Assembly (NCBI GenBank): GCA_965224345.1 | Contig: CBDCYU010000003.1 | Coordinates: 2,100,297-2,164,296, forward strand | DNA: 64,000 nucleotides | Source: Dehalococcoidia bacterium | GTDB taxonomy: Bacteria; Chloroflexota; Dehalococcoidia; Lucifugimonadales; CBDCYU01 | Direction: 5' to 3' | Part shown: one piece after another, positions 12,049 to 61,871 of the stretch | How positions within the stretch are numbered: the stretch's first letter is position 1 | Layout of the letters: each line of letters starts with the position of its first letter | Made by a program: the position numbers and the translations under genes | The notes under the pieces: model-generated | Told to the model about the DNA's origin: nothing | Seen by the model: only the letters and a program-made list of their open reading frames with translations | The model's database searches: none

Positions 12049-12317
12049 CGTCGGTCGACCAGCCCTTCCAGCCAGTTGATGTGAAGGCGGTCCGGTTTCA
12101 GTGTGGCCACTGCTAGGGCGAGGTCGTCCAGGCGCTCCCGCGATACAAGGTGCCCTAGGATTGCCGCTCTGTGGGGAGTCGTGGGAAGTCCTGATGCGCA
12201 ACGGCTTCATGGACCCCAATCGAGTGCTTTCCCGCGCCATCCAGGATGTACTTCAGAACCAGAGTCTCCCCATGACCATCCGGTTCGAGATCGACGGTGA
12301 GGAGGCAGGTGGCTAGG

Positions 12318-13058: not shown

Positions 13059-13067
13059 GGTCTGCCG

Positions 13068-36218: not shown

Positions 36219-36821
36219 CTAACCTTCCTCGGGCGGGAACGGGTCCTGCTCACTAACCAACGCCTGCGACTCCCGGATCGACAAACCCCTTTTCCTCTTG
36301 TCTCCCCAGAGGCCTTTGATGTATGTGAGCACCCCGACTATCTCTTCGTGGCTTAGTCGGTCCCCGAATGCCGGCATGGCACTCTTGAAGTCCGAATAGC
36401 GAGGGTCCTCCAGCATCTTTCCACCCTGGCTCACAATTCGGTACAAGAGGCCGTCCGCATGGTGCCACGTATGCCCATCGCCATTGAGGGGAGGCGGCGG
36501 CAGTGTGCCATCGGCCTTCCCAATATGCCAGTCCGGTTGACCCTCGCCAGCAACTCCGTGACAGCCAGCACAATTTGAGGCGAATATCTCTCGACCCGTT
36601 GGAGGCTCCTGAACAGCGGGGACGCTGCCCGGTGTCGGGATATCTTCGCCAGGAGAAGACGAGCAAGCAGTCAAGAAGACCCAGGCGAGCATCAATATGG
36701 CGAAGGCGGCAGCGCAACCGGCGGCTCTCACAGCGATGGAGCGGACGCAGCGAACTGTTAGCAAGGCTCCTCCTGGTGCATCGGTGTCTGACTCGCCGCC
36801 GAAGTGAATTCCGCTCAGCAC
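36219..36821 (-). CDS. membrane-anchored/lipoprotein c-type cytochrome
   Basis: There is a single CAGCH heme-binding site and a distal SAMPAF Met ligand. An N-terminal hydrophobic segment ends in LTAC|SS. Confidence 0.8.
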   Translation of the reverse strand: MLSGIHFGGESDTDAPGGALLTVRCVRSIAVRAAGCAAAFAILMLAWVFLTACSSSPGEDIPTPGSVPAVQEPPTGREIFASNCAGCHGVAGEGQPDWHIGKADGTLPPPPLNGDGHTWHHADGLLYRIVSQGGKMLEDPRYSDFKSAMPAFGDRLSHEEIVGVLTYIKGLWGDKRKRGLSIRESQALVSEQDPFPPEEG

Positions 36822-37049
36822 GTAGTTGAAGTAGCGTCACCTTCAGAAATGCCGTCGGCGCGCTGCATCTCCCGAACGTAACAGATGATCTTCTCCACAG
36901 AATACGTCAGCGAATATCGTTATGCCAGTGGAAGCTGGCATCCAGGCATCGACGACCTTGAAAGCGTCAGACTCTGAGACAGGCTCTACTGCGAACTTTC
37001 CAGTGGGTGGCCACGCGGTAGCAGGGGGTGACCTCTTAGTAGAGTGTTC

Positions 37050-46476: not shown

Positions 46477-46754
46477 GCCCCTCTATAGCAGCAGCTAGCC
46501 GTTGACGACTACACCAAGGGCTGCCGCTCCCTACACATCGGGCGCCGAGAAGACCGCCCTCGGATCGACGTACGCGGCGCAGAACGCGCTTGCAATGACC
46601 AGCGCGGCGAATAGGAGCTTGAACGACCCGGCGGCTACCTCCGCTCGGCTGCGGCGGAAGTAGCCAACGAGCGGAGACAATAACGACAGGGATTGGTCGA
46701 TCATCGTCTATGTGGATATCCCCAATACGAAAGGGAATTATAACCGTGAGTGAA

Positions 46755-46778
46755 ACGGCGGGCCAGTTGGCCCGCCGT
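46755..46778 (-). terminator. 10-bp GC-rich hairpin directly after the small-protein operon
   Basis: acggcgggcc-agtt-ggcccgccgt is followed on the minus strand by a short TTTC tract. It begins 4 nt after the stop at 46782. Confidence 0.5.
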
Positions 46779-46781
46779 CCG

Positions 46782-46928
46782 TCAGTGCTGGCGCTTTGCG
46801 TACTTCCACTCGTCGGGCTTCTTCGGCGGCGTGTTCATGAAGGCGCGAGCCACCTCCTCAGGCGGAGCGTCAATCTGTTCGGGCATCTTGAGCTCTGGGC
46901 GTCCGCGCTTCCGTTTCTCCTCCGCCAT
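46782..46928 (-). CDS. small basic protein (48 aa) with a KRKRGRP AT-hook-like N-terminus; not in the ORF track (<60 aa)
   Basis: The sequence is MAEEKRKRGRPELKMPEQIDAPPEEVARAFMNTPPKKPDEWKYAKRQH*. GGGAGG lies 6 nt upstream of the ATG. It starts 4 nt after the stop of the 88-aa gene. Confidence 0.5.
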   Translation of the reverse strand: MAEEKRKRGRPELKMPEQIDAPPEEVARAFMNTPPKKPDEWKYAKRQH

Positions 46929-46931
46929 CGT

Positions 46932-47198
46932 CTACCTCCCCGCCTGTACGTCCTCGTCGTCGAGCCACCCGTACTTCCGGCAAAGATGGAGCCACAGCCG
47001 TCGGGTCTGGGCATTATCGCGCCGTAGCTCCGCCAGAATGTCGTCATGGTGGGCGATCCGCTCGTCATGGCGGGCGATCATGCTCACCAGCTTGTCCAGC
47101 GTCTTGGTCTGCATGTGAGCGATGTCGGTCAGTTGGTCGATGCCAACGTCCACCCGGTCGAACCGCTCGTCCATCTCCTCCTTCGTCACAGTAGCCAT
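46932..47198 (-). CDS. hypothetical 88-aa helical protein
   Basis: The sequence is MATVTKEEMDERFDRVDVGIDQLTDIAHMQTKTLDKLVSMIARHDERIAHHDDILAELRRDNAQTRRLWLHLCRKYGWLDDEDV. A strong GGGGAGG RBS lies 7 nt upstream. Confidence 0.6.
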   Translation of the reverse strand: MATVTKEEMDERFDRVDVGIDQLTDIAHMQTKTLDKLVSMIARHDERIAHHDDILAELRRDNAQTRRLWLHLCRKYGWLDDEDVQAGR

Positions 47199-47275
47199 CG
47201 CGTTTACCTCCCCTGTTCACGGTATGATTTTACGGTAAAGTCACCGCACCACATTGTCAAGATGGTGGGCGCGTC

Positions 47276-48523
47276 TTAGGGTGTTGGCGTGCTGGTGGGG
47301 ACAACCGTATCACGGTCGCCCACCTCGCGTTGGAACGCTTCCATGCGGGCGTTGATCGCCGTGACGGTCTGGTCGAACGTGGTCTGAATCCTGGCTATCG
47401 ACGACTTGGCCGCCTCGATCTCTCCCTCGTTGATGTTGATCTCGATCCACACCTGATCGGCGAGTCCCTCGAACGTCTCCCACGAGTCCAGCTCCTCCTG
47501 GTACCAATCGTTCAGGAGGTTGACCCGGTTCTGCGTCTCCGTCAGGCGCAGTGTGGCGATGGCGATGTACTCGTCCTTGATGGTGCGCGCCGACTCGATG
47601 GACGCAAGTGTCCGCTGGTTGAGGTCGGCCTGGATAGCCACCTCGAGCGCCTTGATCTCGGACAGCTCCGAGATCCACGCCTGGTTGGACGCGTCGATCT
47701 CGGAGGAGATTTCCTGTGTGACGCGGAGACGCTCGGCGGTGTTCCTCTTCTCCTGTGCGATCCTGGCGTTGTTGGCGTCCAGCCTAGCCTGCTCTTCAGC
47801 CTGGAGAACGACCAGTGCCTGGTCGTCGGCTGCCTTCTGTGCCTCCACCGCTGCCAGGTCCTCCCGCCTCTGCTTCTCGATCCTGATCTGCTGGTGGCAG
47901 GAGTAGGTCAGCGCCTTGTGGACGGCGAGGTTGTCTATTGCCGGCAGGTCGGCCAGGGTCACTGAGTAAGAACCCGTACCGTCTCGATTTGCCACCCACC
48001 CTTTCACGTGGAGCCGGCCCAGCGGCCGTGAGGTGGCGTCGTGGCGAGGGATAAGTGTCTGGAACTTTGGCGTGTTATCCGTCACGCTGAAGCTGTAGGT
48101 CGACTGGTACTCCTGAGGGTCGACGTTAATGCGCACGGACCCGGCCACGACTTCCCAGTTGTAGTCACGGCCAGACCCCGGTTCTCCGATACTTTCCCAG
48201 TCGTAGTGGAGGCGCTTGCCGTGGATGTCCCATGCCCGCCAACTACCTGAATGTCCGGGCGGCAGCTCAGACATTCCACGGAGATAGAGGTGGTGCAGGC
48301 AGAGCGGATACTCCATCTCCACCATGTACTCTGCGGAGGTTGCGACACTCTCCGTCTCCCACTTACAGGGGGAGAACGGGTTGTCGGGTGTCTCCCGTTC
48401 CTCTGCGGCGCACTCTGTTGGATAGTCGGCGTAGGCCGTCCACCTGGTCAAGCCGATAGCCATGCTGAGGGCCACCAGGACGAGGAACGACAGGAGCAAC
48501 ACTTTACGGTTCATAGATTCCAT
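47276..48523 (-). CDS. membrane-anchored protein with a Cys-containing beta-rich domain and a long C-terminal coiled coil; no family recognised
   Basis: A signal anchor (MESMNRKVLLLSFLVLVALSMAIGL) is followed by a globular ~200-aa part. A heptad-rich region follows (…EKQRREDLAAVEAQKAADDQALVVLQAEEQARLDANNARIAQEKRNTAERLRV…). The local GC looks lower than the window average. Confidence 0.75.
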   Translation of the reverse strand: MESMNRKVLLLSFLVLVALSMAIGLTRWTAYADYPTECAAEERETPDNPFSPCKWETESVATSAEYMVEMEYPLCLHHLYLRGMSELPPGHSGSWRAWDIHGKRLHYDWESIGEPGSGRDYNWEVVAGSVRINVDPQEYQSTYSFSVTDNTPKFQTLIPRHDATSRPLGRLHVKGWVANRDGTGSYSVTLADLPAIDNLAVHKALTYSCHQQIRIEKQRREDLAAVEAQKAADDQALVVLQAEEQARLDANNARIAQEKRNTAERLRVTQEISSEIDASNQAWISELSEIKALEVAIQADLNQRTLASIESARTIKDEYIAIATLRLTETQNRVNLLNDWYQEELDSWETFEGLADQVWIEININEGEIEAAKSSIARIQTTFDQTVTAINARMEAFQREVGDRDTVVPTSTPTP

Positions 48524-48823
48524 CCTCTCACCTCAGCCCTTGAGGAAGTACCAGAGTGGGGGGCCACGAGGCCGGCGAGCACGAGTGCAATTATGGCGAT
48601 CCTCCGTGTCGTAGTCGGGTCTGGCTCTATGTCAAGGCGATGGGCGGCGCGCTTCGCCCAGGGGGCGCTTGGCAAGGTCTCCCCCGGCAATGCCGCAGCT
48701 TGCCAAGTTCAAGGTGACGATCCGCATTGACGTGGAGCGCCAGAAGAAGGAGCGACCGACCAGCGTCGACTACGGCGAGCTGATCAAGATGCAGCGGCGC
48801 GTCCATCTCCAGAAGGCACTCGC

Positions 48824-48879
48824 TCAGGCCACGAGGTCCTGGTAGCGGAGGCGCTTGCCGTTCATCGCGCGGACGAGAT
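48824..48879 (-). repeat. remnant of the 3' end of a second IS1595-type transposase gene
   Basis: Hand alignment gives 51/56 identical to 49247..49302. It encodes LVRAMNGKRLRYQDLVA*, against DLVRAMNGKRLRYVDLTA* in the intact copy. Similarity ends abruptly at 48879. Confidence 0.75.
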
Positions 48880-48917
48880 TTGACATTATTACAGAAACTC
48901 ATATAATTGCTGGCCAT

Positions 48918-49006
48918 AGGGGGCGGTGGGATTCGAACCCACGGGAGTGCTGTGGCACCCCACTCGGTTTTAAGTCGAGCACAATAATCCACTCTGACAC
49001 GCCCCC
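48918..49006 (-). tRNA. tRNA-Leu (anticodon UAA), type II with a long variable arm, no encoded CCA
   Basis: The reverse complement is GGGGGCGTGTCAGAGTGGATTATTGTGCTCGACTTAAAACCGAGTGGGGTGCCACAGCACTCCCGTGGGTTCGAATCCCACCGCCCCCT. It has a 7-bp acceptor stem, the T-arm GTGGG-TTCGAAT-CCCAC and the anticodon loop CTTAAAA. There is an A-C mismatch at the base of the anticodon stem, and the discriminator is U, which is unusual. Confidence 0.8.
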
Positions 49007-49016
49007 TTGCCCTATG

Positions 49017-49052
49017 CAGGAACGCCGACGAGCATGCTCGTCGGCGTTCCTG
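49017..49052. other. perfect 36-bp palindrome 10 nt upstream of tRNA-Leu
   Basis: caggaacgccgacgagc|atgc... reads identically on both strands (caggaacgccgacgagcatgctcgtcggcgttcctg). Confidence 0.8.
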
Positions 49053-49131
49053 CTCGGTGGCTATCATCCCACACGGTGGGGGCTAGGTCAACCCCCTCGG
49101 ACGTAACTCGTTGGAAAATCGCTGTCTAACC

Positions 49132-50205
49132 CCTACATGTAGGTGAAGGGGTGAGCGTTATCCACAGACATCCACCATATATGGGACACCGCTATATATG
49201 GTGGGTTGCCGTCAGTTATCCACTGAGACACCCCATATATGGGGTGTCAGGCCGTGAGGTCGACGTAGCGGAGGCGCTTGCCGTTCATCGCGCGGACGAG
49301 ATCGGCCATCTGGTCGACCGTGTCCTTGAGCCGTCCGTTGTGGCGTCCAGCGAACTCCGTCGCATAGCGCGCAGTGTGCTTTCGGCTGATCCAGTGGTAC
49401 GTCCCGATGATGCCGCGTTTGAGCACCGCCCAAAAGCTCTCGATTCCGTTGGAGTGAATCTCACCGTCGACGTACTGGCCGGCGCTGTGCCGGACGACCG
49501 CGTGGTTCGGCAGGCCGCGATACGCGTAGGCCTCGTCGGTGTAGACCGTCGTGCTGGCGGTGGTGCGCTCCCGAACGAAGCCCTGGAGCGTGGCGCTGTT
49601 GACCTGTTCGACCACCGCGACCGAGACTGCGCCAGACTCGCGGTGCTTGACCCCGACCACCGGCGTCTTGCCGACGGCGCCGCGGCCGGCTCGGAGCTTC
49701 TTGCTGGCGTGCTTGTTCTTCTCCAGGCCGCCGATGTACGTCTCGTCGACCTCCACGTGGCCGGAGAACACTGGGGGCCGCTCGACCCACGCCTCGCGGA
49801 TGCGGTGCGCCATGTGCCACGCGGTTTTCTGCGAGACGCCGATGTACTGACCGAGCCGGACGCTGGAGATACCCTTGACGCTGGTGGTCACGAGGTAGAT
49901 CGCCAGCGCCCACTTGCGATAGCCGATCTTCGAGCTCTGCATGGGCGTCCCGATCTTGACGCTGAAGAACCGAAGGCAATCTCGGCACCAGTACGGCATG
50001 GTCGCGTGGCGGGTGCGCTCCGAGACGTTAAGACTGCCGCAACGCGGGCACGCCATGCCAGTGGGCCACCTGGACGCGACGAGCCACTGCTCGGCAGTGG
50101 CGTCATCGGGGAACATTCGAATAGGGTCGGGAGCGTCAGCGTAGCCATAGTGTCACCTCTTGCGAGGTCACGTTACTGGGGGTACGCGTCTCACCTCAAG
50201 GTAGG
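49132..50205 (-). mobile_element. IS1595-family insertion sequence (boundaries tentative)
   Basis: It carries a single transposase gene. The candidate IRs are CCTACATGTAGGTGAAG (49132-49148) and the reverse complement of 50189-50205, CCTACCTTGAGGTGAGA (13/17). No clear target duplication was found. Subterminal GTTATCCAC...CCATATATGGG motifs lie at 49157 and 49215. Confidence 0.55.
49247..50116 (-). CDS. IS1595-family transposase (N-terminal zinc ribbon + DDE domain)
   Basis: MFPDDATAEQWLVASRWPTGMACPRCGSLNVSERTRHATMPYWCRDCLRFFSVKIGTPMQSSKIGYRKWALAIYL…VEVDETYIGG…YTDEAYAYRGL… matches the ISXO2-like layout. Confidence 0.9.
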   Translation of the reverse strand: MFPDDATAEQWLVASRWPTGMACPRCGSLNVSERTRHATMPYWCRDCLRFFSVKIGTPMQSSKIGYRKWALAIYLVTTSVKGISSVRLGQYIGVSQKTAWHMAHRIREAWVERPPVFSGHVEVDETYIGGLEKNKHASKKLRAGRGAVGKTPVVGVKHRESGAVSVAVVEQVNSATLQGFVRERTTASTTVYTDEAYAYRGLPNHAVVRHSAGQYVDGEIHSNGIESFWAVLKRGIIGTYHWISRKHTARYATEFAGRHNGRLKDTVDQMADLVRAMNGKRLRYVDLTA

Positions 50206-50235
50206 CGGCCTCACTTTGGTAACAAAATCCCATAC

Positions 50236-50272
50236 GAAAGAGGGGCCCGGATTCGGTCCGGGCCCCTCTTTC
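50236..50272 (-). terminator. 15-bp perfect hairpin 17 nt downstream of the oxidoreductase beta-subunit stop
   Basis: gaaagaggggcccgg-attcggt-ccgggcccctctttc has a T-rich stretch (gattttgtt) further downstream on the minus strand. Confidence 0.6.
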
Positions 50273-50288
50273 CGGCGTCGGCTGTATG

Positions 50289-51287
50289 TTACGCCTTGGC
50301 CTTGTTTGGGTCCTGCACTGGGATGACTCCCGGGAGCCACCACTTCTCCCACATCTCGTCGGTCCTGGACTGGAAGTAGTCGACGTCCTCGTCGATAAAG
50401 TGGGCGAAGCGCCCCTGGCGCTTTAGGAACTCGACCACCGGCTTGCGCTTGCGGCGGCCTTCGGCGATCATCCGAGAAGGCCCGTTGAGGCTCAGCACGC
50501 CATCCTCCACCTCGTACTGCACCCAGATACCGGTCTCGACCATCAGCATCCCCAGCTCGTGGGAGTACATCGGGTCGTAGTCCCACCCCTTGGGGCACGG
50601 GTCGATGGTGTGGAGGAAGGTCGGGCCGCCTATGGTGAGGCCCTTTCGGACCTTGTTCATCATGTCGACGGCGTATGACGCACAGCCCGTGGCCACGTAC
50701 CTGACGCCCGGATGGCCCACTGCCAACATGGCCGCCGTGTTCTTCTTCCACCTGGAGTTCATGATCCTGTGGACTTTGCCGGGGGGCGAGAAGGTGGAGT
50801 TGGCGCCCCAAGGAGACGAGCCCGAGACCTGTATGTCTGTGTTCGCGTAGGACTCGTTGTCGTACAGAAGTACCAGGTGGTTGTACTCAGGATGGGTGAG
50901 GGAGGCGGATATCGCGGACAGGCCCATGTCTGCGCCTCCACCATCGCCGCAGAAGGATATGACGTTGATGGGCTCATCCTTGATCTTGCCCTTGGACATC
51001 AGCGCCTTCAGCCCCGCGGCGGTCCCCGTCGCGGCAGACCCTGAGGAGCCCAGCTGCGTGTGCATCCACGGCACCACCCACGGCGTCGAGTAGTAGGTAG
51101 TGTTGGCCACGTACATGCAGCCCGTGCTGCCCAGCACGATGGTTCTGGGGCCCGCGGCCTTTATCATCAGCTTCATCACGAGCGCGGACTCGCAGCCTTG
51201 GCAGGTGCGGTGCCCGGAGGTGAAGTACTCCTCGAGGGGTGAGTTGTGGACCCCCTTGATCATGGGAAGTGTGCTTGCGGTAGTCAT
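50289..51287 (-). CDS. 2-oxoacid:ferredoxin oxidoreductase beta subunit (TPP-binding, PorB-like)
   Basis: CQGCESAL is the Cys cluster region, and GDGGGADMGLSAI is the TPP-binding GDG motif. Confidence 0.9.
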   Translation of the reverse strand: MTTASTLPMIKGVHNSPLEEYFTSGHRTCQGCESALVMKLMIKAAGPRTIVLGSTGCMYVANTTYYSTPWVVPWMHTQLGSSGSAATGTAAGLKALMSKGKIKDEPINVISFCGDGGGADMGLSAISASLTHPEYNHLVLLYDNESYANTDIQVSGSSPWGANSTFSPPGKVHRIMNSRWKKNTAAMLAVGHPGVRYVATGCASYAVDMMNKVRKGLTIGGPTFLHTIDPCPKGWDYDPMYSHELGMLMVETGIWVQYEVEDGVLSLNGPSRMIAEGRRKRKPVVEFLKRQGRFAHFIDEDVDYFQSRTDEMWEKWWLPGVIPVQDPNKAKA

Positions 51288-53786: not shown

Positions 53787-54488
53787 TTAGAAAGACGCCC
53801 CCGGCGACAGGTTGTGTATCTCCTTGTCGATGTCCGCGATGTGCCTGCGCATCGCCAGGGCTGCTTCAGGCGGCTCCTCCCGCTGGATGGCGCCGAGGAT
53901 CTCCCGGTGGGACTGAAGAGAGAGTCTCGAGCGCTCAAGGGAGAGCAGGGAGTCCTCCCGGCTCTGGCTCAGAATGTCCGAGATGGCCCGCGTCACGGCT
54001 ATCAGGGCGGCGTTCTTGGTCGCCTCGGCGATGGCGAAATGGAACCGGGCGTCGTCCTCGACGCCCGTGCCGCCGGCGGCGATGTCGGCCTCCTGGTGGA
54101 CCAGGTGCTCGTCCATCAGCCTGAGGTCCGCCTCGGTGGCGCGCTGGGCCGCAAGAGATACGACGTGGGGCTCCAGGAGCAGCCGCATCTCGAAGACGTC
54201 GCTCGCCGCGCTGTCGTCGTCCAGAAGAGACGAAAACGCCTGCACGATGGCCTCCATCGCGTCCTCCGTGATGAAGGTCCCCGCGCCGGGGCGGATCACC
54301 ACCAGCCCCTTCATGTCCAAGAGTCGCATCGCCTCTCGGACCGAGGCGCGGCTCACGCCCAGCATCTGCGCCAGCTCCCGCTCGGGTGGCAGTCGATCAC
54401 CCGGATTCAGCTCACCCTTCCTGATGAGCTCATAGATCTGCCCTACGATCTCCTCGGGGATGCGAGTCTTCTTTACGGCTCTGAGCAG
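53787..54488 (-). CDS. GntR/FadR-family transcriptional regulator; start apparently non-canonical (CTG)
   Basis: The wHTH region (L)LRAVKKTRIPEEIVGQIYELIRKGELNPGDRLPPERELAQMLGVSRASVREAMRLL is followed by an FCD-type C-domain. The first ATG (track start 54365) would delete the HTH. The frame is closed by TGA just upstream of an AAGGAGG RBS, and no ATG/GTG/TTG lies between them. Confidence 0.8.
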   Translation of the reverse strand: MLRAVKKTRIPEEIVGQIYELIRKGELNPGDRLPPERELAQMLGVSRASVREAMRLLDMKGLVVIRPGAGTFITEDAMEAIVQAFSSLLDDDSAASDVFEMRLLLEPHVVSLAAQRATEADLRLMDEHLVHQEADIAAGGTGVEDDARFHFAIAEATKNAALIAVTRAISDILSQSREDSLLSLERSRLSLQSHREILGAIQREEPPEAALAMRRHIADIDKEIHNLSPGASF

Positions 54489-54592
54489 CTCCAGCCTCCT
54501 TGCGGTATGAGCATCAGGTGGTCAGACCAAAATGGACGATACCACCCAGCGCCGCGGTTGTCAAATCGCCCGGCGGCTAAGAGCCCCAGCAC

Positions 54593-55090
54593 TCACGCTG
54601 CGCTGAACCGGACGAGCCTGGTATCTCCCCTGACGTAGAGGGGATGGCGCGGGTGCCCCTGCAAGGTGACTCCCAGCGCGTGGGTCTCGACGCCCCTCTC
54701 TTGGAGGACAGCGAGGGTCCTCCGAGCCCTGCCCTCCAACTCGCCGCTATTGCCGTAGGCGAGCACGACGAGGCGCGACCTCGACGCCGCCTCGAGCGTC
54801 TCCGCCAGGTTCCTCCGCGCCACGGCGTCGGGCTCCGGGCCGTGCTCCAGCAGGTCCCTGGGGCGGGCGGCCCTGAAGGGAGAGAGGTTGGTCACCAGCA
54901 GCCAGGCGAACCCCCACATGCGGGCGAACCCCGCGCAACGGCTTATGGTGGGGTCGTTACACTCCTCGTCCGCGGTGGAGGGATTCAGCATCAGAAAGTT
55001 GACTGCCCTCTCTCCGGGCCCGACCCTTCGAGTAAGCAGGAACCTGTACTTCCTGTCCGGGGAGAACAGCGCGGGCGGCATCTTGCTCAT
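54593..55090 (-). CDS. DUF1643 family protein
   Basis: ALFSPDRKYRFLLTRRVGPGERAVNFLMLNPSTADEECNDPTISRC…LVVLAYGN…GHPRHPLYV matches the DUF1643 pattern. It shares a 4-nt ATGA overlap with the upstream gene. Confidence 0.75.
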   Translation of the reverse strand: MSKMPPALFSPDRKYRFLLTRRVGPGERAVNFLMLNPSTADEECNDPTISRCAGFARMWGFAWLLVTNLSPFRAARPRDLLEHGPEPDAVARRNLAETLEAASRSRLVVLAYGNSGELEGRARRTLAVLQERGVETHALGVTLQGHPRHPLYVRGDTRLVRFSAA

Positions 55091-55779
55091 GCTACGGCCC
55101 GGTTCGCTCCTCGAGCTCCTCTATCCACCTGCTTGAAAAGGGGACATTGGCCGCGAATGGCGCTGAGACCTATCTCCTCCACTGCGAGGACGCCCATCAA
55201 GGGCTTCTGGTAGCCTTCGTACAGGTCGCGAACACGCTTGGAGGGGGCCGTGTCCGGCGAGTCGTTGATCTCCTCAGGGGTCCCGAATTCGGCGCGGACC
55301 GCCTGAAGCTCCGCCGATAGGTTGGGTCGCCCAATTCCTCGGGCGAAGCGTTCCGGGTCGCTGAACAGAAGCCCCTCGAACTCATGCATCACCACGTAAG
55401 GGATGAAGCGCCGGCGGTCGAAAGCGCCGCCCAGGGAGCTCGAAACATCTTCCAGGAGGGCCTGCTGGACGGAGGCCGCTCGCTCCTTCAAGGTCTCCTT
55501 ACGTGCGGCCCGCTCCCGTCCCGGCCACGTGAATGGCAGCCCGTAGTAGTCCACCATGGTCGTCGCAAACGTATCCCGGTCCGATGTCAGGTGATTCAAG
55601 ATGTCGTTGCGCACCGAATCCCATGGTCTGATGCCGCCGCGCCGGCTCCGTTGACGAGCATTACCGATCAGGCGGGCGCTGACATTCGTATATCCAAGAC
55701 TGTACAGGTACGGGGCCAGGACTCCATTCACGAAGCTCTCCTCCGTCTGGCCCTCGACGTGTACGAGTAACCGGGGCAT
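55087..55779 (-). CDS. DUF4276 family protein (Toprim-like N-terminal motif)
   Basis: MPRLLVHVEGQTEESFVN… and …FIPYVVMHEFEGLLFSDPE… match my recollection of the DUF4276 conserved blocks. It starts 4 nt after the ATPase stop. Confidence 0.75.
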   Translation of the reverse strand: MPRLLVHVEGQTEESFVNGVLAPYLYSLGYTNVSARLIGNARQRSRRGGIRPWDSVRNDILNHLTSDRDTFATTMVDYYGLPFTWPGRERAARKETLKERAASVQQALLEDVSSSLGGAFDRRRFIPYVVMHEFEGLLFSDPERFARGIGRPNLSAELQAVRAEFGTPEEINDSPDTAPSKRVRDLYEGYQKPLMGVLAVEEIGLSAIRGQCPLFKQVDRGARGANRAVA

Positions 55780-55783
55780 CCCG

Positions 55784-56890
55784 CTACTCCCGCCTCGGCC
55801 GTCCGCCCAGCTCGTTCTTCTCCCAAAGCTGGCCCAAGCTGTAGCTCTCCAACCAGGGCTCCAACTCGGACGATTCGAGCCGATTGAGCTGCGTTTTGCC
55901 GTCGACGCGCTCCGCCACGAGCACCTCCTCCGACTCGAAGTGGTCCAACAGGAGGGACGACTGGGTCGAGACGATCACCTGCGACTCGATTGACGCCTGC
56001 CTCATCAGCGACGCCAGCAGGGTGATGGCGTACGGGTGCATCCCCAGCTCCGGCTCGTCTACCAGGATTACCGACGGCCTGAACTTCACCGGCTGGAGGA
56101 ACAGCGTAGCCAGGGCCATGAAGCGCAGCGTCCCGTCCGATAACGATGAAGCGTCGAAATAGGCGTCCGTTCCTTCATGTCTCCACTCGAGCCTGATCTT
56201 GTCAGGGTTCAGCCCCTGGGGATTGAGCTCGAAGTCCTCGAAGAACGGCGCTGCCAGCCGGACCGTCCGCGCGATGGAGCGATACGAATCTTCGTGCTTC
56301 TCACGGAGGAGATAGAGAAGGGCCGCCAGATTCGTTCCGTCGGTGCGGAGATAGCGGTTGTCGTTCACGTCAGCCGTCTTTTTCATGGGAGAGCTGGCAC
56401 TGGTGTCGTGGAAGTGATAGAGGCGCCACCTATCTAGACGCTGCCTGACATATCCTCCAACTCTCACTAAGAACCGGTTGCTGATCCCGGCTTCTCCTTC
56501 GGCGCTCCTAAGCTGCACCATGTAAGGATTGGAATTCGGCTTGTTCCGGAAGCATGCGGTTTCATCCCATGGAACCAGCTCGTCAAGACCAGTCGGCTCA
56601 AGAGTGAGATCATATTCGTTTTTCCCCTCTTCGAAGGAGAGGCGAATATGCAGCTGCTTGGTAACTCGTGAGCCGAAGTGCAGCACCTTGTCGGCGCCGC
56701 CTGCCTTGATCACATACTCCCGCAAACGGCCCTCCCGGATGGCATTCAGGAAAGAGAACACGCCAAGAAAGTTCGACTTGCCGGAGCCGTTGGGGCCGAT
56801 GAGCACCGTCAGCGGTCCGATCTCCAGCTCCTCGATGGACTCGATGCTCTTGAAGCCCCGTACGGTTATGTAGTCCAGCTCGCTCATCAC
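55784..56890 (-). CDS. AAA_15/AAA_21-type (ABC/SMC-like) ATPase
   Basis: Walker A is GPNGSGKSN, the signature-like motif is LSDGTLRFMAL, Walker B is VILVDEPELGMHP and the H-loop region is IVSTQS. It shares a 4-nt ATGA overlap with the upstream MTase gene. Confidence 0.85.
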   Translation of the reverse strand: MMSELDYITVRGFKSIESIEELEIGPLTVLIGPNGSGKSNFLGVFSFLNAIREGRLREYVIKAGGADKVLHFGSRVTKQLHIRLSFEEGKNEYDLTLEPTGLDELVPWDETACFRNKPNSNPYMVQLRSAEGEAGISNRFLVRVGGYVRQRLDRWRLYHFHDTSASSPMKKTADVNDNRYLRTDGTNLAALLYLLREKHEDSYRSIARTVRLAAPFFEDFELNPQGLNPDKIRLEWRHEGTDAYFDASSLSDGTLRFMALATLFLQPVKFRPSVILVDEPELGMHPYAITLLASLMRQASIESQVIVSTQSSLLLDHFESEEVLVAERVDGKTQLNRLESSELEPWLESYSLGQLWEKNELGGRPRRE

Positions 56891-58524
56891 ACCGTCTCGC
56901 CCATTCTACCCTGCCGGCCCTCGGCGCGCCTCACTCGCTGGGCGGCCTGGTACATGGACGGGTGAGGCGGCAGATCGAAGGTCTTGCCCTCCAGCAGCTC
57001 GGCTATGGTGCGCAGCTGTATTTTCGGGTAGTCCCTCTGCCACACGTCCGAGTGGTAGAAACCCGCGCTGACGGCCTCGGTGCGCATGGCGCTCGTCGGC
57101 TCCTCCAGGGTGATGAAGAGGCCCATCGCCGCCTTCTCGCGCTGGACGGTGCCCTTCAGATCGCGGATGAGGGGCGACGAGACCCTGCCGCTCTTGACCT
57201 GCACGATGGCCTTCCGCGGCGAGCGCCGGGGGCCGTCGATGAAGTAGACGATACCGTCGATGCCCCTATCCGCGCCGCGCCTGCTCTGCTCCCGGGGGGA
57301 CGCCTCCAGCAGGGACATGGCCCAGAACTGGAACTGGTACCTGTCCTGCTCCGCCAGGGCGCGGGCGCCGCCGACGTCCGCCGGCTCGCCGACGACCTCG
57401 TAGTCCCTGCCGGGCACGATGTCGAAGGCGGTCTTGAGGCGGTTCTTCATCAGCGCGACTGCTAGATGGGTGACGTCGATGCCCATCCACCGGCGCTTCA
57501 GCTTCTCCGCGGCGGCCACCGCCGTGCCGCACCCGCAGAAGGGGTCCAGCACCACGTCGCCCTCGTTGGATGAGGCCTCTATGATGCGCTCCAAGAGGGC
57601 CTGCGGCTTCTGGGTTGGGTAGCCGAGACGTTCCTTATTGGAGCCGGACAATGAGTATATGTCTGCCCACACATCTTGCATGGGGACCCCCCGAGACTCG
57701 TCGAGGTAAGTTTTCCTGCTAGGATACCCAGTCCTCGAGTAGTACAGGCGGCCTTCTTCGTGTAGGCGCTGCATGGTAGCCTGGCTGTACCTCCATGCTC
57801 TCGTATGTCCATTCCACTCATATACAGGATTGCCCTTCTCTGCACCACCTGGTCCCGTCAGCGGAGTGGTCCTGAATCTTCTTCCAGTCTCCTCGTCAAC
57901 ATATCTGTACGTACTCCTGACATAGCTTTCATCCAGTGGAACGAATCCTTGATGCCAGGTAACAGATGCGCTCTTGCCATACAACAGGATGATGTCATGC
58001 ACTCGTCCAAATCGAGTAGACCCCTGACCCACATCGTTGTGAGCACCGTAACGCTTCCATGTGATTTCATTTCGAAAGTTCTCAGCCCCAAACACCGCAT
58101 CCATCAGCAGCTTCAAGTAGTGGCTCGCTGTCGGGTCGCAGTGCAGGTATATGGAGCCGGTGGGCTTCAGCACCCGGCGAAGCTGCACCAGCCGCGGCGT
58201 CATCATGACAAGGTACGCCATCATGGCGTTGCTGCCGATGAACTGGCGGAAGCCGGAGACCATCTCCTTGACGTTGGGCGGCGTCTCCGGGTTCAGTACG
58301 ATCTCCTGCTCGAACGTCCGCTCCGACTCCTGCGTCCACTCCCACGTGTCGGTGAACGCCTTGATCTGGGCGGGCGACTCCTCGCCGGACCTCTCCTTGA
58401 ACAGCACGTTGTACGACGCGTTGGAGTTGAAGGGCGGGTCGAGGTAGACGAGGTCCACCGACTCGTCGGGGACGTACCGGCGCAGCACGTCCAGGTTGTC
58501 GCCGTAGTACAGGGTGTTAGTCAT
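56887..58524 (-). CDS. beta-class N6/N4 DNA methyltransferase fused to a C-terminal Mrr-type restriction endonuclease-like domain
   Basis: The start is at MTNTLYYGDNLDVL. Motif IV is VDLVYLDPPFNS and motif I is VVLDPFCGCGT. The C-terminal PD-(D/E)xK motif is RGIDGIVYF…KAIVQVKSG. The track ORF extends to 58749 but would then overlap vapC. Confidence 0.85.
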   Translation of the reverse strand: MTNTLYYGDNLDVLRRYVPDESVDLVYLDPPFNSNASYNVLFKERSGEESPAQIKAFTDTWEWTQESERTFEQEIVLNPETPPNVKEMVSGFRQFIGSNAMMAYLVMMTPRLVQLRRVLKPTGSIYLHCDPTASHYLKLLMDAVFGAENFRNEITWKRYGAHNDVGQGSTRFGRVHDIILLYGKSASVTWHQGFVPLDESYVRSTYRYVDEETGRRFRTTPLTGPGGAEKGNPVYEWNGHTRAWRYSQATMQRLHEEGRLYYSRTGYPSRKTYLDESRGVPMQDVWADIYSLSGSNKERLGYPTQKPQALLERIIEASSNEGDVVLDPFCGCGTAVAAAEKLKRRWMGIDVTHLAVALMKNRLKTAFDIVPGRDYEVVGEPADVGGARALAEQDRYQFQFWAMSLLEASPREQSRRGADRGIDGIVYFIDGPRRSPRKAIVQVKSGRVSSPLIRDLKGTVQREKAAMGLFITLEEPTSAMRTEAVSAGFYHSDVWQRDYPKIQLRTIAELLEGKTFDLPPHPSMYQAAQRVRRAEGRQGRMGETV

Positions 58525-58594
58525 AATGTTCGAGGGCTCTTGAAATCGACGCGCTGTCCTCGACACGCAACCCTGAGGCGCAGCAGATATCGGA

Positions 58595-58975
58595 TCAGAT
58601 ACGGAATCCGAGGGTTGCGGCCACGGCCCGCTGACGGTCGTCGAGAGTGACGAAGGAGATGTCGCTGGGCTCCGGGGCGGCGTAGAGGGCCGTCGCGATA
58701 TGCCACAGATCGGCTCCCCCGAGGTATCCGGCCTGCAGGATGGACGCAATCTCCGTGGTCAACGGACGGTCCGGGAGGACCCACCTGACGCCGGAGAGGA
58801 CACGGACGTCAAAAGCCCTTCTCTCCCGTCCGTACGCGGCCCGGACCTCGGCTTCGAGCAGATTCGACGACCAGAGGCTGGAGAACCGACCGAGGCGCCG
58901 CTCCACGGCGGTCCATCCGTTATCTTGGAACGCAATGCCGACGATGGCGGAAGAGTCGACGTAGGCGATGCTCAC
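58595..58975 (-). CDS. vapC: PIN-domain ribonuclease toxin VapC
   Basis: The acidic quartet context is MSIAYVDSS (D), LLEAEV (E), GADLWHIA (D) and TLDDRQ (D). It shares a 4-nt overlap with the upstream antitoxin gene. Confidence 0.85.
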   Translation of the reverse strand: MSIAYVDSSAIVGIAFQDNGWTAVERRLGRFSSLWSSNLLEAEVRAAYGRERRAFDVRVLSGVRWVLPDRPLTTEIASILQAGYLGGADLWHIATALYAAPEPSDISFVTLDDRQRAVAATLGFRI

Positions 58976-59259
58976 CGGTCGCGCTCTTCGAGGAACCTCT
59001 TCAGAGCGCCCGGCACGTGGACACCCCCTTTAAAGGCCACTCTGGGCCCGCGAGGGGCAGACAGGGCCCCTCGGCGCTCCAACTCTTGGGTCCGCTGCTC
59101 TATCGCCGTCTTCGCCTTTTCCACCGGACGGATCTCGGCAACCGGCTCACCTCGGTAGGACACGGTCACGGTCCTCCCCTCACGGATATGGCGTATGACC
59201 TCGGAGAACCGGGCCTTGGCCTCGTACGTCGAATAGGTAATGTCCATGCCCGATAGCAT
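58972..59259 (-). CDS. Phd/YefM-family antitoxin
   Basis: TYSTYEAKARFSEVIRHIREGRTVTVSYRGEPVAEIRPV is the typical Phd/YefM N-terminal fold sequence. The alternative start at 59247 (MDITY) is equally possible. Confidence 0.8.
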   Translation of the reverse strand: MLSGMDITYSTYEAKARFSEVIRHIREGRTVTVSYRGEPVAEIRPVEKAKTAIEQRTQELERRGALSAPRGPRVAFKGGVHVPGALKRFLEERDR

Positions 59260-59380
59260 AACCGGTCAGACTGGTCAGATCAAGCTGGGACCCGGAAGTA
59301 GCAACTACGCAGCACGTCCAGGTTATCGCGTATTGCAGGGTCTTGGGCATCGTGAGGCACCGTTGATCTTTGCGTTGCGC

Positions 59381-60100
59381 TTACGCGTCCCCGCTGTGAG
59401 GCATCTCGTCCCACGTACGGTCATCCAGGACGCGGCCGGTTCGTTTCTTGAACACGCCTCCCCACTGCTTGAAGAAGAACGGGACTTTATTTCTTACGCA
59501 ATGGTCCCGTATCTCCCTCGCCCAATCGGCTTTCATGGGCCTCGCTCCCGGCCCCGATTCACCTCCCACGATGACCCACTGGATACCGGAAAGTTCCAGG
59601 TTGGGCATCGGTCCCAGCAGCGGCTCCAAGGAGAGAAACTTGGTGTGAGCGTCGGTGGCCTTTAGCAAGTCCAGGCGGTGCAGCCACCTTTCGGACTCTA
59701 TGCTCGTGCCCAGCCAGATGTTTGGCGTCCAGTCGAGCTTGGCATTGAGTTGCTTGACGCGGCCGGGGCGCTTAGTAAGAACCTGGAATGTGTGCTGAGA
59801 CGCCTGGTTCATAACGTCGAAGACCGACTGAACGTACTCAGAAGACACGGCCTTGTGAAATAGGTCGCTCATCGAATTCACAAAGACGAGGCTCGGCTTT
59901 TTCCACTTCAGGGGCTCTCGAAGCACTGATTCGTGGACGACGACCTCGAATCCCCGGCGATACTTCTCCACTCCCATTGCCTGGAGGCGTTTGGCCATGC
60001 GTTCCGCATAGCAAAGCTTGCAGCCGTGGCTGATCTTGGTGCAGCCGGTGACCGGGTTCCAGGTGGTTTCAGTCCATTCGATCTTGGAGAGTGTGGACAC
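59381..60100 (-). CDS. phage Gp37/Gp68 family protein (DUF5131, three-Cys-motif protein)
   Basis: MSTLSKIEWTETTWNPVTGCTKISHGCKLCYAERMAKRL is the hallmark N-terminus with C-x6-C-x2-C. …VIVGGESGPGARPM…FFFKQWGG also matches the family. Confidence 0.85.
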   Translation of the reverse strand: MSTLSKIEWTETTWNPVTGCTKISHGCKLCYAERMAKRLQAMGVEKYRRGFEVVVHESVLREPLKWKKPSLVFVNSMSDLFHKAVSSEYVQSVFDVMNQASQHTFQVLTKRPGRVKQLNAKLDWTPNIWLGTSIESERWLHRLDLLKATDAHTKFLSLEPLLGPMPNLELSGIQWVIVGGESGPGARPMKADWAREIRDHCVRNKVPFFFKQWGGVFKKRTGRVLDDRTWDEMPHSGDA

Positions 60101-60104
60101 GAGA

Positions 60105-60950
60105 TCACCCGCTTGCGTTGAGGATGTACTTGGCTATTCTCTTGGCAACAGCCGCTCCGTTCGGGTTGCCGACACAGAACACAAACTCAAATAAGGGTGA
60201 GTTCTTCGAGTTCATAAGGGTCTTGGATGTCTCCATGAATCTCTGACCGAACAGGGCTTTCAGCTTGGCCTTGTATATCTTCCTGATTCCCTCAACGCCG
60301 GGATCCCTCTGGTACATTTGATCGCCGAATAGGGACTGTTGGGGATTGGCGTAATATAGCTCTCTCCAGCTTTCATCGCCAAAGATTTTGGTCAGCCTGT
60401 CGGCCCAGGCGTCAGAGATATCGTCCGGGTTCCTCGAGACAGGCAGCATTCTGGCGATCGCGGATATTGGAAAGAGTATCCAAGTGTCGAGGGCGTTGAA
60501 GCCCGCTATCCTTTCGATTGTAGTCCATTCAACCTCAGTAGCAAACGGATCGAGAAAGAGGACGCCTCGCCATACCCTCCAATCTTCTTGCAGCTTGCTC
60601 AAGAAAGTGTTGGCGTCGGAGTTCTCAGTTCTGATGTCCCGCCCGGGATTTTTTTTGCGTAGGGTTGCCAGTTGATTATATCGTTGAGTGTCCTTCTCAA
60701 CGAAGATCAGTCGGTCGAACGCCTTGTCGTCAATACCAATCGCCAGCTTTGACGAGCCGTCTATGAAAGCTCGTGCATCATCATCTGCCAGACGCGGGCT
60801 AACGCTACCTGTACCGGCAAAAGCATCTACGTACATCAACTTGAAGGACTGATTCTTCAGTGCGGTAGTGTAGGCATTCAGGATGGATAGCTTGTCGACA
60901 GTCCATTGTCCTCCAAAGCCGTCAGGCGTTGTTTCGGACGTTCCGGCCAT
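60105..60950 (-). CDS. tcmP: three-Cys-motif partner protein TcmP
   Basis: …QWTVDKLSILNAYTTALKNQSFKLMYVDAFAGTG…LFLDPFATEVEWTTIERIA…DTWILFP… is as I recall for the TcmP family. It sits 4 nt upstream of the Gp37/Gp68 gene. Confidence 0.75.
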   Translation of the reverse strand: MAGTSETTPDGFGGQWTVDKLSILNAYTTALKNQSFKLMYVDAFAGTGSVSPRLADDDARAFIDGSSKLAIGIDDKAFDRLIFVEKDTQRYNQLATLRKKNPGRDIRTENSDANTFLSKLQEDWRVWRGVLFLDPFATEVEWTTIERIAGFNALDTWILFPISAIARMLPVSRNPDDISDAWADRLTKIFGDESWRELYYANPQQSLFGDQMYQRDPGVEGIRKIYKAKLKALFGQRFMETSKTLMNSKNSPLFEFVFCVGNPNGAAVAKRIAKYILNASG

Positions 60951-61295
60951 AATCGCACCTCAGTAGTTGGCATCCCTTGGCTACCAACTATCCCTCTCTG
61001 GGATTGGTCAAGGCATGCGAGATTGCTCTGTTCGGCAAGATGATAGCACCCCTGTTCTCATAGGGCAAGGGAAAAGCCGAGAGTGTGAGTTAGGCGGTCA
61101 GCATATCACCCGGCAGGCTGCGGCAACACTCTTTCGCGCATAGGCCAAGCCGCCCTCCCGGCGAGAAAGGGGGAGAGAATCGCCAGGCCGCATCCTCCGG
61201 CGCACTTGACGCGCCTCGACGAATTGGTATGCTTACGGTGCTTCTATTCGGGCATGTTACTTCCCAGAGCCTCAGTACCTATCAAGGAGCTAGAG

Positions 61296-61871
61296 ATGAT
61301 CCATGCAGAGAGGGTAGCCAGCCACCTGACGACGGAGCAGCTCGAAACCGGGATGGAGCACATCCTGCGGTCTCCGGCAGACAGGGGGCCCCTGGTGAAG
61401 ATCGTCCGGCGGCCCGGCATGGACCAGCGGGAGGTCCTGGCGGAGGGTCAGCTGGACGTCGACATTGGCCTCGTCGGGGACAACTGGAAGACGCGGGGGA
61501 GCACCGGCACCCCCGACGGCAGCGCAAATCCGGTCGCGCAGATCACGATGATCAACGCGCGCTTCCTCTCGCTGATAGCGCAGTCGGAGAAGCGATGGCA
61601 GCTGTCCGGCGATCAGCTCCTCGTGGACCTAGACCTGAGCATCGAGAACCTGCCTCCTGGAACGCAGCTGTCCATCGGCTCGGCGGTGATCGAGGTCTCG
61701 GCGAAGCCGCACACGGGCTGCGCCAAGTTCTCCGCGCGCTTCGGCCGGGACGCCCTGCGGATCACGGCCACGCCGAAGGGGACGGACCTGAGGCTCCGGG
61801 GCGTCAACACCAGGGTGGTACGGTCGGGCACGATCCGGGTCGGGGACGTGGCGGCCAAGATTTCCGTGTAG
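61296..61871 (+). CDS. MOSC domain-containing protein
   Basis: The start is at MIHAERVAS after AAGGAG. …GLVGDNW…AQITMINARFL…QLLVDLDLSIENLPPGTQLSIGSAVIEVSAKPHTGCAKF… is the MOSC beta-barrel with its conserved Cys. Confidence 0.8.
   Translation: MIHAERVASHLTTEQLETGMEHILRSPADRGPLVKIVRRPGMDQREVLAEGQLDVDIGLVGDNWKTRGSTGTPDGSANPVAQITMINARFLSLIAQSEKRWQLSGDQLLVDLDLSIENLPPGTQLSIGSAVIEVSAKPHTGCAKFSARFGRDALRITATPKGTDLRLRGVNTRVVRSGTIRVGDVAAKISV

Follow-up and report, generated by a model that had tools for sequence, protein, structure and literature searches.

Chromosomal defence hotspots between conserved core genes have been described for Pseudomonas, E. coli and Vibrio. Here we describe a locus of this known kind, and not a new kind of system, in an uncultured lineage: eight tightly packed, co-directional minus-strand open reading frames (ORFs) at 54593-60950 of a 64-kb stretch of DNA (in the following, the window) from a metagenome-assembled genome of the Dehalococcoidia (Chloroflexota), with coordinates verified in the window. 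In transcriptional order the ORFs encode TcmP, a DUF5131 protein, a Phd/YefM-family antitoxin, a VapC-like PIN toxin, a DNA methyltransferase (MTase) with a fused Mrr-type nuclease domain, an ABC-type ATPase, a DUF4276 protein and a DUF1643 protein. The sequence comparisons below make it very probable that the locus is a composite defence island of predicted function, whose autonomous modules are stacked and exchanged by recombination and not by a site-specific integrase. As in the described hotspots, the flanks are fixed core genes, the defence cargo varies between strains and there is no obvious mobility gene; the differences are the uncultured Dehalococcoidia host and a footprint that suggests entry by homologous recombination at a resident MTase gene. 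The Dehalococcoidia are ecologically important, and we know of no published work on their anti-virus repertoire.

Several described systems resemble the ATPase and DUF4276 genes. HEC-01 pairs an ABC ATPase with a Toprim-like partner sharing the OLD metal site (Payne et al., bioRxiv 10.1101/2024.01.29.577857). The window pair agrees with it in the adjacency of the two genes, strong PADLOC matches, ABC motifs, acidic Toprim-type residues and a methylase system as neighbour. Published HEC-01 lies inside Hma, whereas the window pair follows the fused MTase-Mrr gene and precedes DUF1643, and two subtypes alternate at the one locus. A second relative is MADS (mad1-8; bioRxiv 10.1101/2023.03.30.534895), with which the window shares a methyltransferase, a MAD3-like ABC ATPase and a MAD4-like DUF4276 protein; DUF4276, the MAD4 of MADS, has been assigned to the Toprim superfamily (PMC12065111). 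The window MTase differs in carrying its own nuclease domain. Membership in MADS was rejected, because the island, with its eight genes and no other large ones, lacks MAD6, MAD7 and MAD8, all three obligatory in the MacSyFinder model of the MADS authors, and because the ATPase reaches 112.9 bits against the NCBIfam MAD3 model, which has a cut-off of 420. The OLD family (P2 Old, Gabija GajA, PARIS AriA-AriB) has the same logic of an ABC ATPase sensor and a Toprim nuclease, but the predicted nuclease of the window is DUF4276 and not DUF4435 or Toprim_Old, and there is no UvrD-like partner (GajB). PARIS was rejected as well, since the partner is a DUF4276 protein without a DUF4435 match and the AriA match is secondary (1.9e-29).

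The window MTase is of the beta class with a central target-recognition domain (TRD), as are Type III Mod proteins (PDB: 6k0w, 4zcf), and its TRD alleles are shuffled like mod alleles. A Type III restriction-modification (R-M) system was rejected, as there is no separate Res helicase-nuclease subunit and no helicase gene in the island. In classical Type IIG enzymes the nuclease is N-terminal and the MTase belongs to the gamma class. The window enzyme is like Type IIG/IIC enzymes in joining MTase and nuclease in one polypeptide, but its nuclease domain is C-terminal and of the Mrr type.

For the remaining genes, the closest descriptions are type II toxin-antitoxin (TA) systems and the PADLOC candidate PDC-M41. 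The Phd and PIN genes have the gene order, 4-nt overlap and sizes (95 and 126 aa) typical of type II TA pairs; in comparison with canonical VapB-VapC, VapB is replaced by a Phd-family antitoxin, a known hybrid pairing, and the window type differs in that its toxin is decaying in some sister strains. TcmP and DUF5131 match both PDC-M41 models, are adjacent, and have an R-M gene as neighbour, which is what one would expect of a candidate identified by embedding. The window-type pair differs in being a solitary, mobile two-gene cassette in Dehalococcoidia, twice abutting 5' fragments of MTase-Mrr genes.

Variable cargo between fixed flanks

Sister strains of the same species were available as 16 distinct metagenome contigs, retrieved by their exact ferritin and GntR proteins, and 13 of the 16 cross the junction on the MOSC side. 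Compared contigs and loci carry L-numbers (L001, L009, L101 etc.) and homologous proteins P-numbers (P0001, P0023); families were assigned by Pfam, NCBIfam and PADLOC profile searches. The island is flanked on one side by a GntR/FCD regulator gene and a three-gene 2-oxoacid:ferredoxin oxidoreductase operon, and on the other side by MOSC and ferritin genes. The housekeeping flank proteins of both sides are 97-100% identical between the window and the sister strains. Between these flanks the strains differ at fixed breakpoints, which argues for modularity and turnover of the locus.

Homology to all sister strains ends at 61197 and resumes at 59300-59341, so that the window holds a private insertion of 1,896 bp. 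Neither TcmP nor DUF5131 was found in any of the 16 sister contigs, 13 of which span the junction, and among these strains the insertion is present only in the window genome. At the same breakpoints, four of the 13 strains have 34 bp, eight have a segment of ~1 kb with a MerR/DUF433 gene and one has a thiolase gene; this last strain is without Phd-PIN. Phd-VapC is present in most strains. In three strains (L002: 12143-13192; L006; L007) a precise insertion of ~1.1 kb between PIN and MTase brings in a gene for a 349-aa protein, which resembles a nucleoside deoxyribosyltransferase or a TIR effector (weak Pfam match to Nuc_deoxyrib_tr, PADLOC TIR effector with 6.5e-13). In one group of strains the ATPase and its partner are replaced by the other HEC-01 subtype (PADLOC: PDLC04180 / PDLC04194), so two subtypes segregate at one locus within the species.

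The core next to GntR, which comprises MTase-Mrr, HEC-01 and DUF1643, is kept at least in part in all 16 contigs and is broken in a few of them. As every sampled strain has at least part of it, the core appears to be resident and not recent. DUF1643 is present in 13 out of the 13 sister contigs that span its position. Decay affects MTase-Mrr and the ATPase in L184 (4843-7581), where the first is split in two and the second is split, and the ATPase in L010 (4496-7692), where it is in fragments. PIN is truncated or absent in L005, L187, L010 and L003, and in L005 and L187 its length is reduced to 103 aa or 55 aa. By these sequence comparisons the locus is made up of at least four modules, among them the resident core (MTase-Mrr, HEC-01, DUF1643), Phd-VapC and the strain-specific TcmP-DUF5131.

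Two genes of the core also vary internally, while the DNA around their variable segments is 95-100% identical between strains. In the MTase, motif IV (DPPF) and motif I (DPFCGCGT) enclose the variable segment, and by analogy with Type III Mod proteins aa 157-296 are the TRD. The window TRD is 99-100% identical at the DNA level to those of L002, L004, L005 and L006 and only ~45-50% identical to those of L001, L003, L007 and L010. Among database homologs there are at least five TRD types (100, 52, 45, 43 and 37% identity) on backbones of at least 95.5% identity, and the window TRD recurs at 86-92% identity on backbones that are only 75-84% identical. Read from sequence, this is the domain shuffling expected of restriction specificity. 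The TRD alleles told apart are the window type, those of L001, of L003/L007 and of L010, and a P0023 type. In the ATPase, the segment aa 75-170 has at least four alleles, with a DNA identity of 57-89% against 95-100% around it. Its synonymous divergence (dS) is 0.32-0.75 and its nonsynonymous divergence (dN) 0.18-0.37, whereas the flank genes have a dS of 0.01-0.09; dS is thus ~10-fold above the flanks, and dN/dS is ~0.5 against ~0.1. Since dS is raised along with dN, the alleles of the insert are old and brought in by recombination, not made by local hypermutation. In-situ hypermutation as by a diversity-generating retroelement was rejected on the same ground, dS having risen to the same extent as dN, and for the absence of a reverse transcriptase.

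TRD alleles on near-identical backbones together with the divergence of the ATPase insert are, as sequence patterns, arms-race signatures. With at least five TRDs, at least four ATPase-insert alleles, two HEC-01 subtypes and four cargo states at one junction, a natural allelic series is found in one population, which could be matched with methylation motifs from the sister-strain data sets themselves; by their contig names (ERZ2506xxxx-ERZ2876xxxx), these may be long-read assemblies. The series yields hypotheses for two candidate systems, HEC-01 and PDC-M41.

The GC content of the window has a mean of 0.632 with a standard deviation of 0.039 (500-bp windows), and the lowest 500-bp value of the whole window, 0.508, is found at 60201-60700 inside TcmP. 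The 1,896-bp insertion has a GC content of 0.549, and the GC content at third codon positions (GC3) falls to 0.61 in TcmP and 0.75 in DUF5131. A second trough covers the MTase TRD (57640-58100, GC 0.52) and a third one the ATPase insert (56150-56900, GC 0.57), and these two match exactly the stretches in which the strains differ. Of the eight island genes, seven show a depressed GC3. Like a genomic island, the locus varies in content among close relatives while its flanks are conserved, and its composition is deviant.

The original prediction, made from the window alone, had placed eight consecutive minus-strand genes between ordinary metabolic flanks and had read them as a defence island that was assembled from at least two separately acquired pieces, with an AT-rich upstream third. 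All eight ORFs and both flanks were recovered, and the GC minimum and the GC3 of TcmP and DUF5131 agree with the AT-rich third. The absence of TcmP-DUF5131 from the 13 junction-spanning strains and its occurrence alone elsewhere bear out the separate acquisition, with the number now refined to at least four modules. Both the defence-island reading and the separate acquisition are thereby supported, more firmly than composition would allow by itself.

Proposed assembly at the methyltransferase gene

Outside the window species, cassettes of ~80% DNA identity to TcmP-DUF5131 occur alone between housekeeping genes in three other Dehalococcoidia contexts, and the related cassettes are always 5-10 GC points below their flanks. 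Only 59365-60960 of the insertion matches other TcmP cassettes (~80%). TcmP-DUF5131 is read as a recent acquisition.

The insertion also contains a relic of the 5' end of an MTase-Mrr gene, at 59350-59305 just downstream of DUF5131. Part of it forms a 22-nt direct repeat with the intact MTase start (59308-59329 / 58481-58502, 95% identical), and the relic could be aligned with the intact MTase 5' end, with the relic of L009 and with the fragment of L194. The latter is the closest related cassette (82% DNA identity), in which a 66-aa MTase-Mrr fragment (88% identical) directly follows DUF5131. L009 keeps the arrangement DUF433-PIN_10-relic, matching the order DUF433-PIN_10-MTase-Mrr of L093 and L101, and both L001, in its DUF433 segment, and L003, in its thiolase, share 79-83% identity with the arrangement seen in L093. 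At sequence level, the relic and the L194 fragment point to assembly by recombination at the MTase gene and not by an integrase. Cargo would enter upstream of MTase-Mrr with the conserved 5' end of the gene as one anchor, and repeated events of this kind would stack TA pairs and other cassettes there.

Such recombination would account for the absence of integrase, tRNA and edge repeats, which the original prediction had already reported and which held in our searches, the MTase relic now being offered as the recombination footprint. No integrase is found in or beside the island, and no tRNA within 5 kb of it or at either edge, the nearest being tRNA-Leu at 48917-49007. A repeat search gave no direct repeats at the island edges. 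We saw no target-site duplication at the 1,896-bp insertion, where nothing but a 4-bp CCGG microhomology is shared, a match without significance. The locus would thereby illustrate an integrase-free route of defence-cargo build-up, in which a resident MTase gene recombines at its 5' end.

Predicted functions and competing explanations

The ATPase matches the PADLOC model PDLC04175 over residues 3-365 of 368 (2.1e-137), and the DUF4276 protein matches PDLC04188 (2.7e-72); weaker PADLOC matches of the pair are AriA (1.9e-29), Old and GajA. In the translated ATPase we found the Walker A motif GPNGSGKSN, the signature LSDGTLR and the Walker B motif ILVDEPE, and in DUF4276 both HEC-01B subtypes share the invariant acidic residues E9, E14, E133 and E135. 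In sequence and architecture, that is, in the match of the ATPase model and the adjacent DUF4276 with conserved acidic residues, the pair conforms to HEC-01. We propose that it works like OLD, PARIS and Gabija, with the ABC ATPase as a sensor that would license the Toprim-like DUF4276, a predicted nuclease, and with the hypervariable ATPase insert as the putative sensing surface. Co-transcribed with the R-M enzyme, HEC-01 would probably serve as a second line of defence or as a guard. A related pair (HEC-01-like ATPase and DUF4276, 35-39% identity) was seen in a distant member of the Dehalococcoidia (L050, OZ244879.1: 8030-9825), directly upstream of the same oxidoreductase operon and in the place of the GntR gene.

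DUF1643 is the last gene of the core operon and may encode an accessory protein of the core. Its AlphaFold2 (AF2) model is confident (pLDDT 92.8), but no PDB match of the model is better than an E-value of 0.02, and only phage DUF1643 proteins match it. Nucleoside deoxyribosyltransferase, TIR and uracil-DNA glycosylase (UDG) folds were considered and rejected, the resemblances being weak and not significant. Longer DUF1643 homologs showed no informative domain fusions, and homologs at ~55% identity are solitary (L099, L100).

How tightly the four core genes belong together can be read in more than one way. One rival takes them as a single methylation-discriminating system, a minimal MADS-like one or one like PrrC embedded in R-M, in which the ATPase-Toprim pair needs the R-M enzyme. 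The four genes are translationally coupled, in L101 the same four-gene order, with the other HEC-01 subtype, occurs at a different place in the genome, and pairs of ABC ATPase and DUF4276 recur beside methylases, as MAD3/MAD4 in MADS and as HEC-01 embedded in Hma; the inactivity of HEC-01 alone in E. coli would fit as well. We nevertheless think this unlikely, as MTase-Mrr stands without HEC-01 in 80 out of 80 metagenome loci and in L092 and L093, and as HEC-01 subtypes are swapped while MTase and DUF1643 remain. Moreover, the window and L005 have a 100% identical TRD and highly diverged ATPase inserts, which places breakpoints between the MTase and ATPase genes.

The wider distribution of the fusion gives the details. 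In the 80 metagenome loci (51-66% identity) no neighbour of MTase-Mrr matches any other island gene, and a Pfam check of nine of them showed unrelated or housekeeping neighbours. Among Dehalococcoidia genomes, the fusion stands alone in L092 and follows DUF433-PIN_10 in L093, in both without HEC-01 and DUF1643; it is found with the other HEC-01 subtype in L091, and with that subtype and DUF1643 in L101. The block of MTase-Mrr, ATPase, DUF4276 and DUF1643 is met again only in members of this clade, where its chromosomal site differs. As a general rule, a single conserved system of all eight or of four genes is rejected by the 80 loci.

A doubtful but related proposal makes HEC-01 not a stand-alone defence but a guard or effector that depends on the neighbouring methylation enzyme, possibly together with DUF1643, while TcmP-DUF5131 would be a radical-SAM (S-adenosylmethionine) nucleic-acid modification cassette riding on R-M genes. 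Such a dependence would explain the inactivity of HEC-01 when it was tested alone, and if it were true, the four-gene operon would be a minimal methylation-coupled OLD-like system.

The MTase-Mrr protein itself consists of a beta-class N6_N4 DNA methyltransferase, the central TRD and a C-terminal Mrr-type PD-(D/E)xK nuclease domain. Its relatives in the PDB are CcrM, Type III Mod and RsrI, with Type III Mod as the closest one over the full length. The fusion is common to 120 of the 120 best homologs and very abundant, since all 8,000 scored candidates have E-values <= 1e-20. In its domains it has the layout of a single-chain R-M protein, with MTase and nuclease domains in one polypeptide and intact catalytic motifs: DPPF, DPFCGCGT and GxDxGIDG...VQVK are conserved (94 homologs). 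The DPPF motif argues for N6-adenine methylation, so the product is probably N6-methyladenine. The most economical reading, given the conserved Mrr signature and the turnover of the TRD, is a single-chain R-M enzyme, which would methylate host DNA at a site set by the swappable TRD and whose fused Mrr-type domain would cut unmarked incoming DNA.

Alternatively, MTase-Mrr could be a solitary regulatory or epigenetic methyltransferase in which the nuclease-like domain is a dead DNA-binding module, so that the island would consist mostly of TA and accessory genes. In line with this, the best C-terminal Pfam match is NA-iREase1 (2.3e-11), a family of 'inactive' restriction endonucleases (REases), the gene is very widespread and usually solitary, and its GC is near-native outside the TRD. 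We consider it improbable, because the GIDG...VQVK catalytic signature is conserved across the 94 homologs, because exchange of the TRD among nearly identical strains is what selection on restriction specificity typically gives, and because defence and TA genes repeatedly cluster around MTase-Mrr.

Phd-PIN has the small Phd/YefM antitoxin gene first, overlapping by 4 nt with the downstream gene of the PIN-domain toxin, and by its sequence it is an ordinary type II TA pair. It would stabilise the locus or abort infection. 5' of Phd, at 59262-59300 on the minus strand, there is a tandem CTGACC..CTGACC repeat between weak hexamers resembling -35 (TTGATC) and -10 (TATGCT) elements. The repeat is conserved in all strains and scores below the threshold of the promoter scan; it is a plausible candidate for an autoregulatory operator or promoter of a Phd-PIN(-MTase...) transcript.

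TcmP and DUF5131, adjacent and co-directional, match both PADLOC models of PDC-M41. The AF2 model of TcmP (pLDDT 80) has a class I SAM-methyltransferase fold with RlmJ/DUF519 as best match (E 5e-7 to 1e-6). Its invariant residues are D42-A-F-A-G-x-G48 and D134-P-F136; DAFAGxG and LDPF correspond in alignment to the amino-methyltransferase motifs I and IV (DPPY), and in a sequence profile the invariant LDPF aligns with the DPPY motif of an RsmD-like methylase. DUF5131 has been placed in the radical-SAM superfamily by RadicalSAM.org (PMC9477430). The cysteine motif of the window protein is C20-x6-C27-x2-C30, not the canonical CX3CX2C triad for a 4Fe-4S cluster, and the protein reaches 73.7 bits against TIGR04471, far below the cut-off of 355. 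Homologs of DUF5131 were found in 178 phage records, in some of which a methyltransferase or TcmP-like gene lies beside the homolog. No nuclease or other effector domain is recognisable in TcmP or DUF5131, which favours a nucleic-acid modification cassette: a protein with a SAM-methyltransferase fold and one of the radical-SAM superfamily would most likely modify nucleic acid together.

Some observations weigh against a composite defence island as described here. The one published assay of a HEC-01 representative, in E. coli, showed no protection from any of the phages used (bioRxiv 10.1101/2024.01.29.577857), and PDC-M41 is a multi-gene PADLOC candidate whose only basis is guilt by embedding. 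The nuclease domain of MTase-Mrr scores better against NA-iREase1 than against Mrr_cat, with its D...QxK motif intact despite this. The original prediction had called all eight genes conflict-type; the domain calls hold, but DUF1643 owes this label to its neighbours and has no functional clue of its own. Searches of the literature gave no functional work on TcmP, DUF5131, DUF1643 or the MTase-Mrr fusion. The MTase relic speaks for recombination at the MTase 5' end, not for an order of events. Finally, an empty site with MOSC adjoining GntR was found in none of the 16 sister-strain contigs, which fixes neither the limit of the island towards GntR nor how old the core is.

Genomes of other species bear on the last point. 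We scanned GTDB species genomes for the oxidoreductase subunit, in which the closest species representative has only 85% identity. In the genomes with the subunit, the GntR-oxidoreductase operon is conserved and neither the island nor MOSC adjoins it; in other species MOSC or ferritin was never found within 10 kb of the operon, so that no empty site can be defined. GntR and MOSC are adjacent in no compared relative. The eight genes are not conserved in place across relatives; the outcome named in the original prediction as pointing to ancient core genes was thus not observed. The opposite explanation, that these are ancient core genes of the lineage and no island, is largely refuted and very improbable: the core module is in every sampled strain of the species and the codon composition of DUF1643 is native, but other Dehalococcoidia species have the conserved GntR-oxidoreductase operon without the island next to it, other genomes carry the core module at different loci, seven of the eight genes have a lowered GC3 and gene content differs between strains. 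A decayed prophage or integrative element is scarcely credible, since phage homologs of DUF5131 and DUF1643 and an IS1595 transposase and tRNA-Leu 4.5-5.6 kb away stand against the finding that neither the island nor the DNA beside it has integrase, structural, replication or conjugation genes, the lack of att-like repeats at the island edges and the conserved four-gene GntR-oxidoreductase operon that separates the transposase from it.

Gene boundaries and further regions of the window

The features of the locus are listed in Table 1. The junctions within the island are short: MTase and ATPase overlap at TGATG, DUF4276 and DUF1643 at ATGA (4 nt), and Phd and PIN at GTGA (4 nt), where the PIN start is GTG. 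The spacing is 4 nt between ATPase and DUF4276 and also between TcmP and DUF5131. The ATPase start is likely the ATG at 56887, within the overlap with the MTase stop codon. For the MTase, the start is the ATG at 58524, which is the start called for the 100% identical protein P0001 and in sister strains. A longer, TTG-initiated ORF starting at 58749 was rejected as an artefact, and the MTase gene does not overlap the PIN gene.

Table 1. Coordinates, strand, GC3 and family matches of the island genes, their variable segments and the boundary genes
Feature	Position	Strand	GC3	Description
GntR/FCD regulator (boundary flank)	53787-54488	-		probable CTG start at 54488
DUF1643	54593-55090	-	0.87 (native)	165 aa; Pfam PF07799 7.5e-34
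DUF4276 / HEC-01B	55087-55779	-	0.74	230 aa; Pfam 8.8e-49, PADLOC HEC-01B 2.7e-72
ABC-type ATPase / HEC-01A	55784-56890	-	0.78	367-368 aa; AAA_21 4.7e-31, SMC_N 6.6e-13, PADLOC 2.1e-137
Hypervariable ATPase segment	56378-56665	-		aa 75-170, Walker A to HFHDTS motif
MTase-Mrr fusion	56887-58524	-	0.82	545 aa; N6_N4_Mtase 1.9e-43, Mrr_cat 2.8e-8, NA-iREase1 2.3e-11
MTase TRD	57637-58056	-		aa 157-296; allelic among strains
PIN toxin (VapC-like)	58595-58975	-	0.80	126 aa; Pfam PIN 2.4e-10
Phd/YefM-family antitoxin	58972-59259	-	0.76	95 aa; PhdYeFM_antitox 2.3e-7; TIGR01552 25.9 bits vs cut-off 20.8
Strain-specific insertion	59301-61196	.		1,896 bp: TcmP, DUF5131, 246 bp unique upstream DNA, MTase relic
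Relic of MTase-Mrr 5' end	59305-59350	-		ATG + ~15 codons, 1-bp deletion, then stop
DUF5131 (phage Gp37/Gp68 family), PDC-M41B	59381-60100	-	0.75	239 aa; Pfam 2.4e-99, PADLOC 2.9e-117
TcmP, PDC-M41A	60105-60950	-	0.61	281 aa; TIGR04474 4.1e-44 (151.5 bits vs cut-off 53), PADLOC 4.2e-71
Promoter-like site 5' of TcmP	61040-61068	-		TTGCCC-17-TATCAT; consensus scan only, no indication of function
MOSC-domain gene (boundary flank)	61296-61871	+		Pfam MOSC 1.7e-6; called as 191 aa in sister strains
Flank genes			0.86-0.90	

At 54365-54494, the GntR/FCD regulator, shortened to 192 aa by gene callers, has no ATG, GTG or TTG in its frame that would take in the helix-turn-helix, and the frame is open back to 54509. 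The CTG at 54488 lies 6 nt after a perfect AAGGAGG ribosome-binding site, and its position matches the ATG start of the L013 ortholog, with a full alignment of 233 aa to relatives. A promoter-like site of GntR is found at 54536-54564, 29 bp from the DUF1643 stop, and one of MOSC at 61206-61233, 10 bp from the insertion breakpoint; both are consensus matches only. Taken by these matches, the island occupies the entire space between the two sites. An Rfam scan of 53.5-62 kb gave no RNA element, and terminator-like sites are not commoner than in shuffled sequence.

A second strain-variable region lies beyond the oxidoreductase operon, at 46500-50290. In the window it contains the IS1595 transposase (49247-50116, minus strand), which is outside the island and ~4.5 kb from its edge, the tRNA-Leu (48917-49007) and a 415-aa ORF (47276-48523) without a Pfam match. 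Sister strains have a sulfatase-like gene and unknown genes at the equivalent place, nothing (L187), or a SLFN_AlbA_2/nSTAND-NTPase gene (L188: 13457-15649).

Another low-GC patch (0.53-0.57) is found at 8261-13100. It has two DDE_Tnp_1 transposase ORFs, at 8261-9088 (minus strand) and 8873-9658 (plus strand), a PD-(D/E)XK nuclease ORF (10289-11080) and an ORF with a SocA/Panacea antitoxin domain (11187-11792), and is possibly a further mobile or conflict region. At 36600-37000 a short dip in GC (0.536), with no other notable feature, covers a cytochrome c gene (36219-36821) and the spacer that follows it.

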